Virus record (IMG/VR): IMGVR_UViG_2802429225_000001
Strand: one strand, 5' to 3'
DNA: 13,287 nucleotides
DNA from: a virus
Taxonomy: Duplodnaviria; Heunggongvirae; Uroviricota; Caudoviricetes
Shown here: positions 1-13,096 of the stretch, piece after piece
How positions within the stretch are numbered: position 1 is the stretch's first letter
Layout: every line of letters begins with the position of its first letter
Made by a program: the position numbers and the translations under genes
Notes under the pieces: model-generated
Databases searched by the model: none
What the model was told of the DNA's origin: nothing
Seen by the model: only the letters and a program-made list of their open reading frames with translations

Positions 1-489
1 TTCGTCCCGTATACCGCCATGCAGGACGATAGCGCCCCGACAGGCCAGCGCATCTGGGAAGAGTTACAGAGCGGCAAATGGGGAGAAATAACCCCGTTCA
101 CCGTCACGCCGGAACTTATCACCGCGGCGAAGGATGCCAAAAAGCGGGAAATCGAGGTGTGGCGCACAGAACAGGAGGCGCAGCCGTTCACGTTCGAATG
201 GAACGGTCGTAGCTGGAATGCTGGCCCCAGCTCACTGGCCCGTATCTATCCGGTGGTAATGGCATCAAAATCCGACACAGCGCGGGACGTTATGACATGG
301 GGTGATGCCGATAATCAGCAAGTGAAGATGTCGATGCCAGAGCTTGAGGAGCTGGCTACAGCTATGGCGCAGGCGCAGGTTAACCGCAATGATGAAATTT
401 ATCGACGTCAGCGACAGATGAAGGACGTGCTGGATGGCCTGAATAATCTTGCCGACATCCGCGCTTTTCAGACTGGAGAGTCAGAATGA
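1..489 (+). CDS. Phage tail-fibre-assembly-like protein, DUF4376-type C-terminal domain; reading frame is open to window position 1, so the 5' end probably lies outside the window (first in-window Met at 19)
   Basis: ORF 19..489 with no in-frame stop between 1 and 18 and no Shine-Dalgarno before Met19. Pattern WR..EA..FTFEWNG..W...W.DADN..V.M...RQRQMK matches my recollection of the DUF4376 signature. Stop overlaps next start (ATGA at 486-489). Confidence 0.5.
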   Translation, partial: FVPYTAMQDDSAPTGQRIWEELQSGKWGEITPFTVTPELITAAKDAKKREIEVWRTEQEAQPFTFEWNGRSWNAGPSSLARIYPVVMASKSDTARDVMTWGDADNQQVKMSMPELEELATAMAQAQVNRNDEIYRRQRQMKDVLDGLNNLADIRAFQTGESE

Positions 490-4088: not shown

Positions 4089-4118
4089 TTGAAACAAGGG
4101 AAAAAACCAGGCTAGAAT
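4089..4118 (+). promoter_or_regulatory. Candidate sigma70 promoter of the hok-like mRNA
   Basis: TTGAAA (4089-4094), 18-nt spacer, TAGAAT (4113-4118); predicted start near 4125, exactly where the 5' element complementary to the 3' end begins. Confidence 0.45.
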
Positions 4119-4168
4119 TCGCGCGGGTGCCTTTCGGCTGATGGCTGGAGGGAATACCTGAAGGCCGG

Positions 4169-4351
4169 ATGTGGAAAGGCCCCGGAAAACATTTTTGTTT
4201 AACCGAGGCCCTAACCGTCTACCTAGCAAGTGATAGGTTAGCGCCTCCCCGAAAAAGGAGCAAGCGCTATGTCGCAAAAATCGCTTACAGCCATCACGTT
4301 CTGTGTGACGGCAATCCTCATCATCTGGATGCTGCACGGCTCGCTGTGTGA
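4169..4351 (+). CDS. mok-like overlapping reading frame (60 aa) upstream of and overlapping the hok-like toxin gene
   Basis: ORF starts at ATG 4169 (GAAGG 4160-4164 upstream), is in a different frame from the toxin ORF and ends inside it, as mok does in hok/sok loci. Protein shows no recognisable domain, so the role is by position only. Confidence 0.3.
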   Translation: MWKGPGKHFCLTEALTVYLASDRLAPPRKRSKRYVAKIAYSHHVLCDGNPHHLDAARLAV

Positions 4352-4409
4352 AATACGGATGAGCTTCTGGGGAGCGGAGTTTGCGGCGTTCTTACAGTGT
4401 AAGCAGTAA
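4269..4409 (+). CDS. hok: Hok/Gef-family type I toxin (46 aa small membrane peptide)
   Basis: ATG 4269 preceded by AAGGAG (4255-4260, 8-nt spacer). Translation MSQKSLTAITFCVTAILIIWMLHGSLCEIRMSFWGAEFAAFLQCKQ has a hydrophobic N-terminal helix plus the SLCEIR ... E.AAF motif shared with Hok (R1) and HokA. Below the size cut-off of the supplied ORF track. Confidence 0.7.
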   Translation: MSQKSLTAITFCVTAILIIWMLHGSLCEIRMSFWGAEFAAFLQCKQ

Positions 4410-4495
4410 GGAAACCGCGACGGGGGAGTAATCCCCCGTCAATCGGTTGCTAAGGTTGGTCGAAACGGCACCCTATCTCACAGACATGAACAACA

Positions 4496-4530
4496 AACCC
4501 GCAGCGTAAAAACTGCGGGTTTTCTTTTTG
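4496..4530 (+). terminator. Intrinsic terminator of the hok-like transcript
   Basis: Stem AACCCGCAG (4496-4504) / CTGCGGGTT (4513-4521), loop CGTAAAAA, followed by TTTCTTTTTGTTG. Confidence 0.6.
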
Positions 4531-4627: not shown

Positions 4628-4661
4628 ATCGGCAGCAGTAACCACACAAGAGGTGCCGCAA

Positions 4662-4859
4662 ATGACGCAAAATGTACGATGCAAAAATTGCAACAAACTA
4701 CTTGCCCGCGCCTCATTTCACTACATTGAAATAAAATGTCCGCGCTGCAAAACACTTAACCAGATAACGAGAGCCATTGAGCACCCCACACGCATGAGGA
4801 GTTATGACCGTGGGGATCGCAACCCAGCATCAACCAGTACATACACCGGAACACACTAA
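4662..4859 (+). CDS. com: Com-like zinc-finger translational regulator (65 aa from ATG 4662; the ORF track starts 3 codons earlier at GTG 4653)
   Basis: AAGAGGTG Shine-Dalgarno (4648-4655) 6 nt before ATG 4662. Protein MTQNVRCKNCNKLLARASFHYIEIKCPRCK ... EHPT carries the CxxC ... CxxC motif and surrounding residues of phage Mu Com. Confidence 0.8.
   Translation: MTQNVRCKNCNKLLARASFHYIEIKCPRCKTLNQITRAIEHPTRMRSYDRGDRNPASTSTYTGTH
4784..4815 (+). promoter_or_regulatory. Stem-loop sequestering the methyltransferase ribosome-binding site and start codon (candidate Com-responsive translational operator)
   Basis: CCCCAC (4784-4789) pairs with GTGGGG (4810-4815); the 20-nt loop holds GAGGAG (4796-4801) and ATG 4804. 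Lies inside the 3' end of com. Confidence 0.4.
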
Positions 4860-5610
4860 GATTTACCAGATTGACAATGCCACGCTCTGTCGTGGAAATG
4901 CACTGGAAATATTGCCGCTGATTGAGCCAGAAAGCATTGATGCCTTAATCACTGACCCGCCTTACAGTTCGGGTGCGACACACAAGGCCGGACGCACCAA
5001 CCAGGGCAGTCATGCAAAATATCTGAACGGCGAGAACCTTCACCGCTTTGATGGGTTCGCGGGTGAGAACATGGACGCCCGTTCGTGGGCTTACTGGACA
5101 CAATTATGGATGGCACAGGCACTACGTGCAGTCAGGTCGGGCGGTTATGCCCTGGTATTTACTGACTGGCGACAACTGCCTGCTTTAACCGATGCGTTTC
5201 AGGCCAGCGGTTTTACATGGCGTGGAATCATTGCGTGGAACAAAGGAAAGGGGTCACGAACACCCCATACGGGGTATTTCCGGCATCAGTGCGAATACAT
5301 CGTCTGGGGCAGCAAAGGCCATTTAGGTAAATCGCCTTCGGGTCCGTTCGACGGCTGCATGACGTTCCCGGTTATCCCGTCAAAGAAAATGCACCCGACC
5401 GGAAAACCAGAAGAACTAATGGCAGAGCTGGTCAGAACTGCGAATAGTGGCGGAACAGTCCTTGATCCTTTTATGGGGTCAGGGACAACGGGTGTGGCTG
5501 CACTGAAAGCAGGGCGAAAATTTATTGGTATAGAAACCAGTGATCATTATTTTGAGGTAGCGGCGCAGCGGCTTCGGGGGACTATTACCACAACCATTTC
5601 GACTACATAA
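4804..5610 (+). CDS. DNA amino-methyltransferase, beta class (N6-adenine or N4-cytosine; N6_N4_Mtase type), 268 aa
   Basis: Motif IV DPPY (LITDPPYSS) precedes HPTGKP and motif I DPFMGSGTT, the beta-class order (IV before I). Start overlaps the com 3' end out of frame (ATG 4804; alternative GTG 4810). Confidence 0.85.
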   Translation: MTVGIATQHQPVHTPEHTKIYQIDNATLCRGNALEILPLIEPESIDALITDPPYSSGATHKAGRTNQGSHAKYLNGENLHRFDGFAGENMDARSWAYWTQLWMAQALRAVRSGGYALVFTDWRQLPALTDAFQASGFTWRGIIAWNKGKGSRTPHTGYFRHQCEYIVWGSKGHLGKSPSGPFDGCMTFPVIPSKKMHPTGKPEELMAELVRTANSGGTVLDPFMGSGTTGVAALKAGRKFIGIETSDHYFEVAAQRLRGTITTTISTT

Positions 5611-5760: not shown

Positions 5761-6156
<396 letters not shown>

Positions 6157-6349: not shown

Positions 6350-7775
6350 TAATGCCAGTCAGTTAAGCAACTGACTGGCTCTTTTTCGGGGCTGTGGGGG
6401 ATTTCCAGGGTCTCTCCTTTACCACTCTCGGGAAGGCCCTTTCCCTTCTTGTCGGTAATTTCACTAGTTGTCCCATACTTGCAAGATCGCGCATCAGCTC
6501 CGGTATACGTCCCGGTGAAGCGCCCTGCAATGTCATCAGCATTCTCATCACCATTCCGCATGATTCTGAGAAACTCAGTTGATTCGGCCAGTAACCTTTC
6601 AGATGTTCTGCCATTTTAATCATCTGATATCTCACCAGATTATAAGCCAGTAAGACACCCCATAGCTCTTGCTCCACAAGCTCCGGCTTTTTACTTCTCA
6701 GCGTCAGCCTGCTCAGTTGCATCGTCTGTTTTATCTCCCTGTATCCCAGTTCGATTTCCCAGCGATGACTGTACAGATCCGCCATTTCTCCTCCGGGGAA
6801 GCGCATGGCGTCCGTCATCGACGTCAGCAGATGGCAGACTTTTCCTTTGCGCGTCACGGTCAGCAGGCGGGCTGTCACCTCATTTCCCAGTCCCGGCCAC
6901 TTTTTTCGTGCCTGCGGGCTGGTTTTCAGCTTCACCAGATGATCGCCTTTACCCAGTTTTCTGATCTCTTCATATTGCGCTCCCTTTCTGAGAGGGATCA
7001 TCCAGTGGCGGTGTTCTCCCGCCTGGCTCCAGGCATTTAACAGTCCCAGTGAGTAATAACCTTTATCCATTAACGTCAGGGTGTTATCGCCGGTTTGTTC
7101 TATAAGTTGCTCAGCAAGCTCATTTTCGCTGTTCTTCATCGTGCCGAAAGCTGCAGCCGTCAGCAGATGGCTGGTCAGTTCCATCTGGCAGACCATTTTG
7201 ACCTGCGGGTAGAGCGCCGGGTTCCCGGCATGTGTCTGGCGGGGGAAGGCTGCATCGTTCTCTGGTGTATCCGGTGTGCGCCAGAACACACCATCGATGG
7301 CCAGCAGGGTCAGGCCGCACCAGTGCGGATGCGGCGTGGCGTTATGCCAGAGCTGCGCTGTTTTCGTGAACACGCGGCGGACAGCCTCACTTCCCAGGCG
7401 CTGGCGGGCCTGAATAACGGCACTGGGGGCAACGAAGGGGCGATTGCCCGGTAGCATGATGTCCAGGCGATTCACAATCTGGTGAAGAGGTTCTTTACGC
7501 TCAAGCGCCATGCCAACAATACACCAGACCATCATTTCGAGGGGAAGACGGCGCTTGCGTAGCGTTACAGTACCTGATTCGGCAAGGCAACGAGAGATGA
7601 GTTCGGGGTCGAGGTAATCCCCCAGAGAAGTCAGTGGGTTACGCAGAGAATCGTAACGGGATACCAAATCAAGTGCCTGTCCAATGAGCATAAAAAAATC
7701 CGGAAACGAGTGAGCGTTTCCGGATTCTTACACAGCCACTGGATCGGTCAACTGATCCTTAACTGATCGGCATTA
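6350..7775 (-). mobile_element. IS4 insertion sequence, complete copy (1426 bp) with 18-bp imperfect terminal inverted repeats
   Basis: Ends TAATGCCAGTCAGTTAAG (6350-6367) and, reverse-complemented, TAATGCCGATCAGTTAAG (7758-7775), 16/18 match. Length 1426 bp and a single 442-aa transposase ORF match IS4 as I know it; flanked by the 13-bp direct repeat. Confidence 0.9.
6363..7691 (-). CDS. insG: IS4 transposase (DDE family, InsG-type), 442 aa
   Basis: Full-length ORF inside the IS. Start ATG at 7689-7691 is immediately preceded on the minus strand by an 11-bp stem (7698-7708 / 7715-7725) and a U-run, a typical IS read-through barrier. Confidence 0.9.
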
Positions 7776-7812: not shown

Positions 7813-8550
7813 TTATGTATTGCTGCTGTTTGCGGCGATGATTTTCGCGACTTTTTCAGCTTGTGCATTCATCTGCATCTGACGGTAAGCATTTTCCATT
7901 AGTGGCAGAGCATCACGTGTAGCCTGAGTATCCGGGAAATCGCGCAGCATGCCTTCTACACGGTTAACGACAGCAACCCATGCGCCGCGTTCTGTATAGT
8001 ACTCGGCAACAGAGTATTCATATTTCGCCAGGCGATCTTTCAGGAACACCAGACGTTTGGTGGCATCGGTGGTGTACTGACTGTTCGGATAGCCGCGAAC
8101 TAATTTGGAAAAGTCACTAAACGCAGCTCGAGCATGTTGAGGATCGCGATCGCTACGGTCAACGCCAAAGAATCCTTGTAGCGCACTGTCATCCAGTGCC
8201 ATATTGGTCAGGCCACGCATATACATGACATAATCGATATTCGGATGGGTCGGGTTCAGGCGAATAAAACGATCGATGGCAGCCTGTGCTAACGGCAGAT
8301 CGGCGTTTTTATAATAGGCGTAGATGAGATCCAACTGCACCTGCTGTGAATACGGACCAAACGGATAGCGATTATCTAACGCTTCCAGTTGCGTTATTGC
8401 CTGTCTCCAGTTACCGTCCTGCAGCTTTTGTTGTGCAGTCGCGTAAATTTCATTTGGCGGATTATCAGGTACTTTTTCCTTTGAACCCGAGCAACCCGCC
8501 AAAAACAGGCTTAATGTGGCGGCTGCCACCAGATATTTCATGCGCGTCAT
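7813..8550 (-). CDS. bamD: Outer-membrane protein assembly factor BamD (YfiO) lipoprotein, 245 aa
   Basis: [26 protein letters not shown] ... with lipobox LAGC; recognised as E. coli BamD. Confidence 0.95.
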
Positions 8551-10393: not shown

Positions 10394-10455
10394 CCTAAAG
10401 AATCAAGACGATCCGGTACGCGTGATTTTCTTTTCACATTAATCTGGTCAATAAC

Positions 10456-10483
10456 CTTGAATAATTGAGGGATGACCTCATTT
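10456..10483 (+). promoter_or_regulatory. Candidate sigma32 (heat-shock) promoter of clpB
   Basis: CTTGAAT (10456-10462), 13-nt spacer, CCTCATTT (10476-10483), matching the sigma32 consensus CTTGAAA / CCCCATnT; about 40 nt upstream of the clpB start. Confidence 0.55.
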
Positions 10484-10522
10484 AATCTCCAGTAGCAACT
10501 TTGATCCGTTATGGGAGGAGTT

Positions 10523-13096
10523 ATGCGTCTGGATCGTCTTACTAACAAATTCCAGCTTGCTCTTGCCGATGCCCAATCACTTGCACTCGGGCACGACAAC
10601 CAATTCATCGAACCACTTCATTTAATGAGCGCCCTGCTGAATCAGGAAGGGGGTTCGGTTAGTCCTTTATTAACATCCGCTGGCATTAATGCTGGCCAAT
10701 TGCGCACAGATATCAATCAGGCATTAAATCGTTTACCGCAGGTTGAAGGTACAGGGGGCGATGTCCAGCCTTCACAGGATCTGGTGCGCGTTCTTAATCT
10801 TTGCGACAAGCTGGCGCAAAAACGTGGTGATAACTTTATCTCGTCAGAACTGTTTGTTCTGGCGGCACTTGAGTCTCGCGGCACGCTGGCCGACATCCTG
10901 AAAGCAGCAGGGGCGACCACCGCCAACATTACTCAAGCGATTGAACAAATGCGTGGAGGTGAAAGCGTGAATGATCAAGGAGCCGAAGACCAACGTCAGG
11001 CTTTGAAAAAATATACCATTGACCTTACCGAACGTGCCGAACAAGGTAAACTCGATCCGGTAATTGGTCGTGATGAAGAAATTCGTCGTACCATTCAGGT
11101 ACTGCAACGCCGTACTAAAAATAACCCGGTACTGATCGGTGAACCTGGTGTCGGTAAAACCGCCATCGTTGAAGGTTTGGCGCAGCGTATTATCAATGGC
11201 GAAGTACCTGAAGGGCTGAAAGGCCGCCGCGTACTGGCGCTGGATATGGGCGCGCTGGTGGCTGGGGCGAAATATCGTGGTGAGTTTGAAGAACGTCTGA
11301 AAGGCGTGCTGAACGATCTGTCGAAACAGGAAGGCAACGTCATTCTGTTTATCGATGAGCTGCACACCATGGTGGGCGCAGGTAAAGCCGATGGCGCAAT
11401 GGACGCCGGGAATATGCTGAAACCGGCACTGGCCCGTGGTGAACTGCACTGCGTGGGCGCGACCACCCTTGATGAATATCGCCAGTACATTGAAAAAGAT
11501 GCGGCGCTGGAACGTCGTTTCCAGAAAGTGTTTGTTGCCGAGCCAACGGTGGAAGACACCATTGCTATTCTGCGTGGCCTGAAAGAACGTTACGAGCTGC
11601 ACCACCATGTGCAAATTACTGACCCGGCAATTGTTGCAGCGGCGACGTTGTCTCATCGCTACATTGCTGACCGTCAGTTGCCAGATAAAGCCATCGACCT
11701 GATCGATGAAGCGGCATCCAGTATCCGTATGCAGATTGACTCAAAACCGGAAGAGCTTGACCGACTCGATCGTCGAATTATCCAGCTTAAGCTGGAACAA
11801 CAGGCGTTAATGAAAGAGTCTGATGAAGCCAGTAAAAAACGTCTGGATATGCTCAATGAAGAACTGAGTGACAAAGAACGCCAGTACTCTGAGTTAGAAG
11901 AGGAGTGGAAAGCAGAGAAAGCGTCACTCTCTGGCACCCAGACCATTAAAGCCGAACTGGAACAGGCGAAAATCGCCATTGAACAGGCGCGCCGTGTAGG
12001 TGATCTGGCGCGGATGTCCGAACTGCAATACGGCAAAATTCCGGAGCTCGAAAAACAACTGGAAGCGGCTACGCAGCTCGAAGGCAAAACCATGCGTCTG
12101 TTGCGTAATAAAGTGACTGACGCAGAAATTGCTGAAGTGTTGGCGCGTTGGACGGGCATTCCTGTTTCTCGCATGATGGAAAGTGAGCGCGAAAAACTGC
12201 TGCGTATGGAGCAAGAACTGCACCATCGTGTTATTGGCCAAAACGAAGCCGTTGATGCGGTATCTAACGCCATTCGTCGTAGCCGTGCGGGGCTTGCGGA
12301 TCCTAATCGCCCGATTGGTTCGTTCTTGTTCCTCGGTCCAACGGGTGTAGGTAAAACCGAACTCTGTAAGGCGCTGGCGAATTTTATGTTCGACAGTGAC
12401 GAGGCGATGGTTCGTATCGATATGTCCGAGTTTATGGAGAAACACTCGGTGTCTCGTCTGGTTGGTGCACCTCCGGGATATGTGGGTTATGAAGAAGGTG
12501 GCTACCTGACTGAAGCGGTGCGTCGTCGTCCTTATTCCGTCATTCTGCTGGATGAAGTGGAAAAAGCGCATCCGGATGTATTCAACATTCTGTTGCAGGT
12601 TCTGGATGACGGACGTCTGACTGATGGGCAGGGGAGAACGGTCGATTTCCGTAATACGGTGGTCATTATGACCTCTAACCTCGGCTCCGATCTGATCCAG
12701 GAACGTTTCGGTGAACTGGATTATGCGCGCATGAAAGAGCTGGTGCTCGGCGTGGTTAGCCATAACTTCCGTCCGGAATTCATAAACCGTATTGATGAAG
12801 TTGTGGTCTTCCACCCGTTGGGTGAACAACATATCGCTTCGATTGCCCAGATCCAGTTGAAACGTCTGTACAAACGTCTGGAAGAACGTGGTTATGAAAT
12901 CCACATTTCTGACGAGGCACTGAAACTGCTGAGCGAGAATGGTTACGATCCGGTTTATGGTGCACGTCCTCTGAAACGTGCTATCCAGCAACAGATCGAA
13001 AACCCGCTGGCGCAGCAAATACTGTCTGGTGAATTGGTTCCTGGCAAAGTCATTCGCCTGGAAGTTAATGAAGACCGCATTGTCGCCGTCCAGTAA
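10523..13096 (+). CDS. clpB: Chaperone/disaggregase ClpB (Hsp100 AAA+ ATPase), 857 aa
   Basis: Two AAA+ modules (Walker A GEPGVGKT and GPTGVGKT) and the middle coiled-coil. I place the start at ATG 10523, which gives the 857-aa length I know for ClpB, with GGGAGGAG 10513-10520 as Shine-Dalgarno, rather than the track's ATG 10511. Internal GTG (Val149) at 10967-10969 matches the known ClpB-80 alternative start. Confidence 0.97.

Follow-up and report, generated by a model that had tools for sequence, protein, structure and literature searches.

Which antitoxin restrains a hok toxin gene that stands alone in its annotation? The question is raised by a prophage-borne gene in the stretch of DNA analysed here, 13,287 nucleotides in all and referred to below as the window. 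On sequence grounds, the window belongs to the chromosome of an Escherichia species that is not E. coli; over its rluD-yfiH stretch it shares 93% identity with each of the 5,426 complete E. coli genomes. The terminal part of a prophage occupies positions 1 to about 5,650, with baseplate genes, a 46-aa Hok/Gef open reading frame, a com-like zinc-ribbon gene and a DNA methylase. The com-like frame (4653-4859, +) overlaps the start of the methylase frame (4804-5610, +), a pair that resembles the com-mom arrangement of phage Mu and adjoins the hok locus, as it does in phages P88 and Chuche. Just beyond the prophage end lies a gene for a 442-aa IS4-family transposase (6363-7691, -), flanked by raiA (5761-6102, -) and bamD (7813-8550, -), while the RyfD small RNA (10404-10542, +; Rfam RF02768, 125 bits) precedes clpB and extends over the annotated start of that gene (10511). 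The toxin gene is recognised by both Pfam and PHROG:

4269-4409, plus strand: hok toxin gene, 46 aa (Pfam HOK_GEF, 29.9 bits against a cut-off of 22; PHROG 251, E = 1.3e-22)

Its reading frame is intact and lies directly downstream of, and on the strand opposite to, an antisense region in which the first-pass annotation had proposed a Sok-like RNA as a weak candidate. A toxin under such control is expected to require its antitoxin. We conclude, with a probability of about 0.82, that the interval is the gene for a putative cis-encoded Sok-type antisense RNA, the antitoxin of the adjacent prophage hok; that the RNA may serve as an active antitoxin, a claim argued by analogy, is held with somewhat lower confidence. 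Judged from its sequence, the locus is an unannotated member of the well-known hok/sok toxin-antitoxin family.

The hok region of the window shares 92-94% identity with P88 and Chuche, two P2-like phages, and 81% with a locus that follows lom, without annotation, in the Stx phages 933W and Sp5. Of the 5,426 complete E. coli genomes, about 1,700 carry the region, and among the best 30 of these roughly 1,700 matches the sole RefSeq annotation underneath is "Hok/Gef family protein". In 933W (and Sp5), the locus right after lom is a second complete hok locus (L002 1526-1815; AF125520 about 45,511-45,800), additional to the annotated hokW/mokW/sokW near position 58,500; the ORF from its upstream ATG has 8 codons only. 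Salmonella enterica offers a further arrangement, with two tandem copies about 500 bp apart (L096-L099, L104-L106, L113-L115) that differ from each other in both Sok tail sequence and Hok protein. Escherichia-type hok loci also turn up in assemblies labelled Planococcaceae MAG, Vagococcus sp. and Xanthomonas pisi (L005, L006 and L009; Hok protein identity 98%, 98% and 72%), and these sequences are probably contaminant contigs.

The messenger RNA that the candidate antisense RNA would target can be laid out as follows:

4089-4118, plus strand: hok mRNA promoter TTGAAA-18-TAGAAT (promoter scan, 10/12 matches; start near G4125)
4125-4268, plus strand: hok mRNA leader, the antisense target (RF01794 match at 4125-4282, +; 43 bits, E = 2.8e-8)
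4205-4247, plus strand: target stem-loop with a GAGGC...GCCUC closing stem (predicted in 30/30 distinct variants)
4241-4267, plus strand: local hairpin sequestering the hok Shine-Dalgarno sequence (SD; GGAG, 4257-4260), predicted in the window and its relatives
4462-4473, plus strand: fbi-like 3' element GAAACGGCACCC; its complement lies at the mRNA 5' end, GGGUGCCUUUC (4125-4135)
4495-4522, plus strand: terminator-like hairpin with a U-tract after the hok locus (terminator scan; scores on both strands)

The inner stem of the target stem-loop changes on both sides among variants, and the element matches the second hairpin of the RF01794 model. Because the 5' arm of the SD hairpin shares GCCUC with the closing stem of the target stem-loop, the two structures exclude each other. 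The SD hairpin is itself conserved (GCGCCUCC...GGAG...GCGC), and in predicted folds of 43 variants the mean probability that the SD is unpaired is about 0.03. When 4125-4474 is folded, the mRNA 5' end (4125-4135) is predicted to pair with 4462-4473, an arrangement like that of R1 hok mRNA under fold-back inhibition; the GGCACCC of the fbi-like element is also present in the 933W copy. The hairpin at 4495-4522, which has U-tracts on both sides, separates the hok locus from the com gene.

Turning to the opposite strand, a Sok-like promoter can be read over the end of this leader:

4258-4263, minus strand: -35 element TTGCTC of the Sok-like promoter (read directly; overlaps the hok SD of the other strand)
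4235-4240, minus strand: -10 element TAACCT of the same promoter (read directly)
4227-4228, minus strand: predicted transcription start, G4227 or possibly U4228 (8 nt after the -10, from sokB geometry and context)

The first-pass annotation had named this minus-strand promoter, TTGCTC-17-TAACCT, and it is present at exactly the positions given there: the plus strand reads GAGCAA at 4258-4263 and AGGTTA at 4235-4240, with a 17-nt spacer at 4241-4257. By themselves, the hexamers do not exceed chance. They agree with the consensus at 6/12 positions (3/6 for the -35 alone); the pattern TTGnnn-16..18-TAnnnT occurs at 15 sites in the window versus about 18 in shuffled sequence; sites with at least a 3/6 match in each hexamer arise once per roughly 58 nt; and the promoter scan of the window does not include this site among its listed promoters. 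The combination of promoter and hairpin becomes significant only because of conservation and homology.

Conservation was assessed in 126 copies of the 46-aa Hok subfamily, which reduce to 59 distinct leaders, drawn from viral contigs, Escherichia, Salmonella, Klebsiella and Citrobacter and encoding Hok proteins 58-100% identical to that of the window. The 80 viral contigs with an identical Hok protein added little divergence, and diversity came via Salmonella and Klebsiella proteins. The minus-strand pattern TT[G/T]NNN-17/18-TANNNT is kept in 59/59 distinct leaders. Their -35 elements read TTGCTC, TTGACT, TTGCCT or TTTACT, and their -10 elements vary among TAACCT, TATCCT and TAAGCT with T1, A2 and T6 constant throughout; the 17/18-nt spacer is maintained even in variants bearing insertions or deletions. 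No non-coding segment of the leader is better conserved than the -10, with its entropy of 0.10 bits and 4/6 columns invariant, and the -35 of the window aligns with those of sokB, sokC, sokW and R1 sok. The predicted start likewise has counterparts: the geometry TAACCT-ATCACTT-G in the window compares with TAAGAT-CTGAATT-G in sokB, and G4227 corresponds to the 5' end of SokC when that end is mapped via the Rfam alignment.

From this start, the candidate RNA would comprise the following parts:

4169-4227, minus strand: predicted Sok-like antisense RNA, about 53-59 nt (family covariance model, 79 bits at 4166-4229, -)
4213-4227, minus strand: 5' single-stranded tail GCUAGGUAGACGGUU..., likely to contact the target loop first (predicted to be unpaired)
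4176-4212, minus strand: terminator/stability hairpin (the 4178-4210 hairpin of the first-pass annotation plus basal A-U and G.U pairs)
4169-4175, minus strand: 3' tail UUUCCACAU (placed by alignment to the annotated SokB and SokC 3' ends)

In the mRNA stem-loop 4205-4247, both the loop and the 5' arm are complementary to the 5' tail, which at 0.92 bits is the most variable stretch of the family leaders. A low-entropy -10 beside a variable tail fits a cis-antisense pair, in which promoter and terminator are constrained and the recognition sequence is free to drift. Tail and target loop vary even between copies with identical Hok proteins; this variability could reflect drift, or selection against cross-talk between copies.

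The hairpin at 4178-4210 is above chance. Folded as minus-strand RNA it reaches -17.9 kcal/mol (z = -4.85, equalled by 0/200 shuffles), and as plus-strand RNA -14.1 kcal/mol (z = -3.5), bearing out the greater minus-strand stability that had been claimed for it. The excess arises because a G.U pair on the minus strand is a C-A mismatch on the mRNA strand. Its stem, GGCCUCGG/CCGGGGCC, is the conserved Sok terminator stem, including the U.G wobble. Across 39 sequences the 10-pair lower stem is 99.2% paired, with compensatory changes at 3 pairs; in a control in which partners were slid by one column, pairing fell to about 75%.

Together, these parts suggest how the locus might work. A sigma-70 promoter with its -35 over the hok SD (TTGCTC-17-TAACCT) would, from sequence and homology, start transcription near G4227, and the RNA would run to about 4169-4175, carrying a single-stranded 5' tail of some 15-17 nt, the hairpin at 4176-4212 and a short U-poor tail. 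By analogy with known Soks, this 53-59-nt RNA would be unstable, and its 5' tail would pair with the loop of the mRNA stem-loop 4205-4247, as in R1 Sok, SokB, SokC and SokW. The predicted antisense RNA is fully complementary to leader positions of about +45 to +103, and pairing could spread over this span into a duplex of about 55 bp, again by analogy; RNase III would then cut the duplex, and the hok mRNA would stay untranslated.

Homology searches tie the candidate to named antitoxins. A family covariance model built in the minus-strand sense from 39 family sequences matched the window (79 bits), sokB (29.4), sokW (26.8) and sokC (25.2), and nothing else in the four sources searched (16.6 kb). 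The sokB, sokW and sokC matches fall on the annotated Sok strand, within 2-9 nt of the annotated ends, with rough E-values of 1e-5 to 1e-4. The Rfam family 'sok', RF01794, scores 43.0 bits on window 4125-4282 (+), below its gathering cut-off of 59; subfamily relatives score 35.6 to 57.2 bits, all likewise under the cut-off, and the result is a threshold miss, no sign of an unrelated locus. The sense of RF01794 is that of the hok mRNA and covers the whole 157-nt leader: its K-12 matches lie on the hokC and hokB strand (L003 602-754; L004 667-818), and the annotated sokC and sokB of E. coli K-12 lie within its span on the opposite strand. The model thus marks the hok leader, the target of Sok, not the Sok RNA, and a plus-strand match is no contradiction. 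Carried through the RF01794 alignment, the SokC ends point to an equivalent RNA from about 4227 to 4169 on the minus strand.

A five-way alignment placed the window minus strand beside sokB, sokC, sokW of 933W and an R1-type sok, the last verified at 100% identity against IncF plasmids. One order is common to all five: the -35 over the hok SD, a 17/18-nt spacer ending in GAGGC, the -10, a variable 5' tail, a stem GCCUCG.../...CGGGGC with the U.G wobble in the same place, and a short tail. Taken with the 59/59 promoter conservation and the strand-biased hairpin, the covariance matches to sokB, sokW and sokC make the Sok-like candidate stronger than the first-pass annotation assumed.

Where the window departs from expectation is in the matter of mok. 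A reading frame in the right place does exist:

4169-4351, plus strand: 60-codon ORF from ATG4169, overlapping hok; mok-like in layout only, not conserved

The first-pass annotation took this ATG for a mok-like start about 5 nt from the hairpin end. The distance is correct, in that three U follow the stem at 4177-4175 and the ATG at 4169-4171 is a further 3 nt on, placing it at the 3' edge of the region complementary to Sok. As a conserved mok start, the assignment does not hold. ATG4169 is specific to the Escherichia clade and absent in Salmonella, Klebsiella and Citrobacter members; the frame that it begins in most Escherichia members has just 8-24 codons and reaches a stop before the hok SD, and the 60-codon state is a minority one among relatives, produced by insertions and deletions. 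The 60-codon ORF has no Pfam or PHROG match. Sok lies over the mok start codon in the hokB, hokC and R1 systems, in which hok translation relies on mok. At the positions of the mokB, mokC and R1 mok starts, the window has no start codon in either the sequence alignment or the Rfam alignment, and a search across the subfamily for a conserved mok in both non-hok frames, allowing GTG and TTG starts, found none. Several relatives have stops in both non-hok frames at the SD, so no overlapping ORF is possible there.

How, then, might a Sok-like RNA silence hok? Since the duplex would start 1-3 nt after ATG4169 and the ORF crosses the SD hairpin, mok-like coupling via this ORF is possible in the window; it is not the conserved mode of the subfamily. 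More generally, repression of translation may proceed by mRNA decay or by locking of the SD hairpin. The 46-aa Hok subfamily as a whole might run hok/sok without mok, with a Sok-like RNA that silences hok without blocking a coupled leader ORF, a tentative suggestion that we regard as somewhat unlikely. Its routes could be RNase III-dependent decay, or a lock on the SD hairpin by the GCCUC (4243-4247) freed from the target stem. If this were true, short upstream ORFs like that of ATG4169 would be recent Escherichia-clade additions inside the complement of the Sok 3' tail.

A Sok-dependent structural switch at the hok SD was also considered and, as stated, is unsupported: in predicted folds the SD stays buried whether or not the duplex has formed, and an ensemble calculation put its accessibility at 0.04 free versus 0.03 Sok-bound. 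In one longer context (4125-4440), a switch at the SD is visible in the minimum-energy fold. The conserved burial of the hok SD raises the question of what opens the SD hairpin 4241-4267 without mok.

The alternative that survives best against a functional antitoxin is that the locus holds a decayed Sok homologue, its promoter or terminator dead, leaving a silent relic or a hok gene controlled by mRNA folding alone. One argument for decay lies at the 3' end. The tail after the stem, UUUCCACA, has 3 U in 8 nt, the hairpin 4176-4212 and its tail are not listed by the terminator scan of the window, and none of the compared Soks has a weaker U-tract than this UUUCC, so that the poor UUU tract remarked on in the first-pass annotation is borne out. 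SokC and SokW have UUUUCUCU and Salmonella relatives UUUCGCUUUUCU, and annotated SokB, with CCUUCGUC, is similarly poor; the Escherichia-clade change that created ATG4169 removed several U (UUUCGCUUUUCU to UUUCCACAUCU). Termination at 4169-4175 is uncertain because of this weakness, and read-through past the tract would lead to a strong minus-strand terminator at 4008-3991. A -35 with only 3/6 of the consensus, the missing canonical mok and an SD buried in predicted folds regardless of Sok also speak for decay.

Against these points stands the retention of the promoter type in every relative, including the intact phages P88 and Chuche and about 1,700 complete E. coli genomes. The hok promoter, fold-back element and ORF are all intact, and the Hok protein is identical across the 80 viral contigs whereas the Sok tail is variable, a combination that fits a system under selection. 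Moreover, sokW, which has the same -10 and spacer, needs its promoter for antitoxin activity (PMC8621323). We therefore consider decay of the Sok homologue improbable.

Conservation could, alternatively, belong to the messenger alone: hairpin and AGGTTAG would be elements of the hok mRNA only, belonging to its folding pathway and to the target stem-loop, the minus-strand hexamers coincidental, and no antisense RNA made. The chance-level hexamers are compatible with such an account, AGGTTAG is the 3' arm of stem-loop 4205-4247 and could owe its conservation to that role, and the hairpin folds on the plus strand too, as the -14 kcal/mol and z of -3.5 given above attest. The two strands, however, do not fare alike. 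In 22/22 distinct hairpin variants the minus-strand RNA is the more stable, with G.U where the mRNA has C-A; means are -20.7 versus -13.3 kcal/mol, a mean gap of 7.4 kcal/mol that reaches as much as 14. Two control mRNA hairpins gave small and mixed strand differences (7 versus 11 and 7 versus 23 variants, about 1-2 kcal/mol). The asymmetry was also weighed as a general composition effect and this was rejected, for a mild minus-strand G+U bias exists but the control hairpins show it to be insufficient.

The stem-loop itself tells against an explanation through the mRNA alone. Its 5' arm varies (CTAAC, CTAGC, CTGGA) while its 3' arm is fixed or stays within TAnnnT, which implies an extra constraint on the 3' arm. 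The 17/18-nt spacer, kept despite indels, and the collinearity of the region with annotated Sok genes add to the case, and an exclusively mRNA-based role is accordingly very improbable. Least credible of all is that the true antitoxin lies elsewhere, as an RNA acting in trans or as a longer antisense transcript driven by a different promoter: no supporting evidence was found for it, although read-through could yield a longer form ending at 4008-3991, and the window contains no second match to the family model, the locus has no further minus-strand promoter-like site, and a cis-encoded Sok occupies the same position in all characterised hok loci (PMC4147584). The first-pass annotation had left room for an antitoxin that is degenerate or elsewhere; with the promoter kept in every relative and a single copy in the window, that suggestion is disfavoured, and the cis-encoded Sok-type RNA is the reading we carry forward.

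Assigning a Sok-type RNA to this interval fills an annotation gap, for RefSeq lists the toxin gene alone (in the best 30 of about 1,700 E. coli genomes) and the locus is present in P2-like and Stx phages as well. Pipelines that apply the Rfam threshold miss the Sok subfamily of the 46-aa Hok. A literature search for transcript data on this subfamily found none, a search with sequence strings of the hok locus returned no relevant match, and a recent Hok catalogue (a preprint) places Sok and Mok outside its analysis by its own statement; the predicted coordinates are checkable in existing transcriptome data. Comparison of hairpin stability on the two strands over a set of relatives offers a simple means of assigning a hairpin to one strand. 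The missing conserved mok is the one unusual point, and raises, on a modest scale, the question of the mechanism by which Sok would repress hok in the subfamily.

Among named systems, SokB (K-12 b4429, opposite hokB/mokB) provides the best match to the family model, at L004 718-779 versus the annotated 720-776. The start context of SokB, TTGCTAGG, compares closely (ATT|GCTAGG versus CTT|GCTAGG in the window), the stem is GGCCUCGG/CCGGGGCC in both, and its length of 57 nt is similar; the SokB tail, CCUUCGUCUUU, also occurs in Klebsiella and Salmonella members of the window's subfamily. The differences lie in the -10 (TAAGAT in SokB versus TAACCT), in the 5' tail, which in SokB covers the mokB start codon (...UUCAUUCG) whereas the window has no start codon there, and in the toxin, the Hok protein of the SokB locus being only 22% identical to that of the window.

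SokW, annotated as a misc_RNA in 933W and Sakai prophage 5, comes closest in its promoter: its -10 TAACCT and 17-nt spacer are identical to those of the window, and its -35, TTGCCT rather than TTGCTC, likewise lies over the hok SD. Both are prophage-borne, and the SokW stem GCCUCAG/CUGGGGC has the same U.G wobble. SokW differs in being 71 nt long, with a longer hairpin and a better U-tract (UUUUCUC), and in serving another Hok subfamily (51 aa, MKQQKAM...) with an annotated mokW. SokW RNA was seen by Northern blot, protection against HokW was lost when the promoter was mutated and partly regained when the RNA was provided in trans, and antitoxin activity was partly RNase III- and Hfq-dependent (PMC8621323). 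The hokW-sokW study of Takada et al. was considered as direct evidence for the present locus and set aside as such, its HokW being the 51-aa MKQQKAM type encoded elsewhere in Sp5/933W; since it concerns a different Hok subfamily, it serves as an analogue only.

R1 Sok, finally, presents the same architecture with little shared sequence. Its promoter, TTGCGC-17-TATCCT, sits over the hok SD and is followed by a 5' tail, a GCCUCG...CGGGGC hairpin with the U.G wobble and a short mixed U/C tail, and its hok mRNA undergoes 5'/3' fold-back pairing; outside stem and promoter, similarity to the window is low. The ribosome-binding site of mok is covered by Sok in R1, where hok translation is mok-dependent, whereas the window's subfamily is without a conserved mok; the canonical hok/sok/mok mechanism is reviewed in PMC4147584. 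On the messenger side, the three-hairpin layout of RF01794 is the same as that of window 4125-4282.
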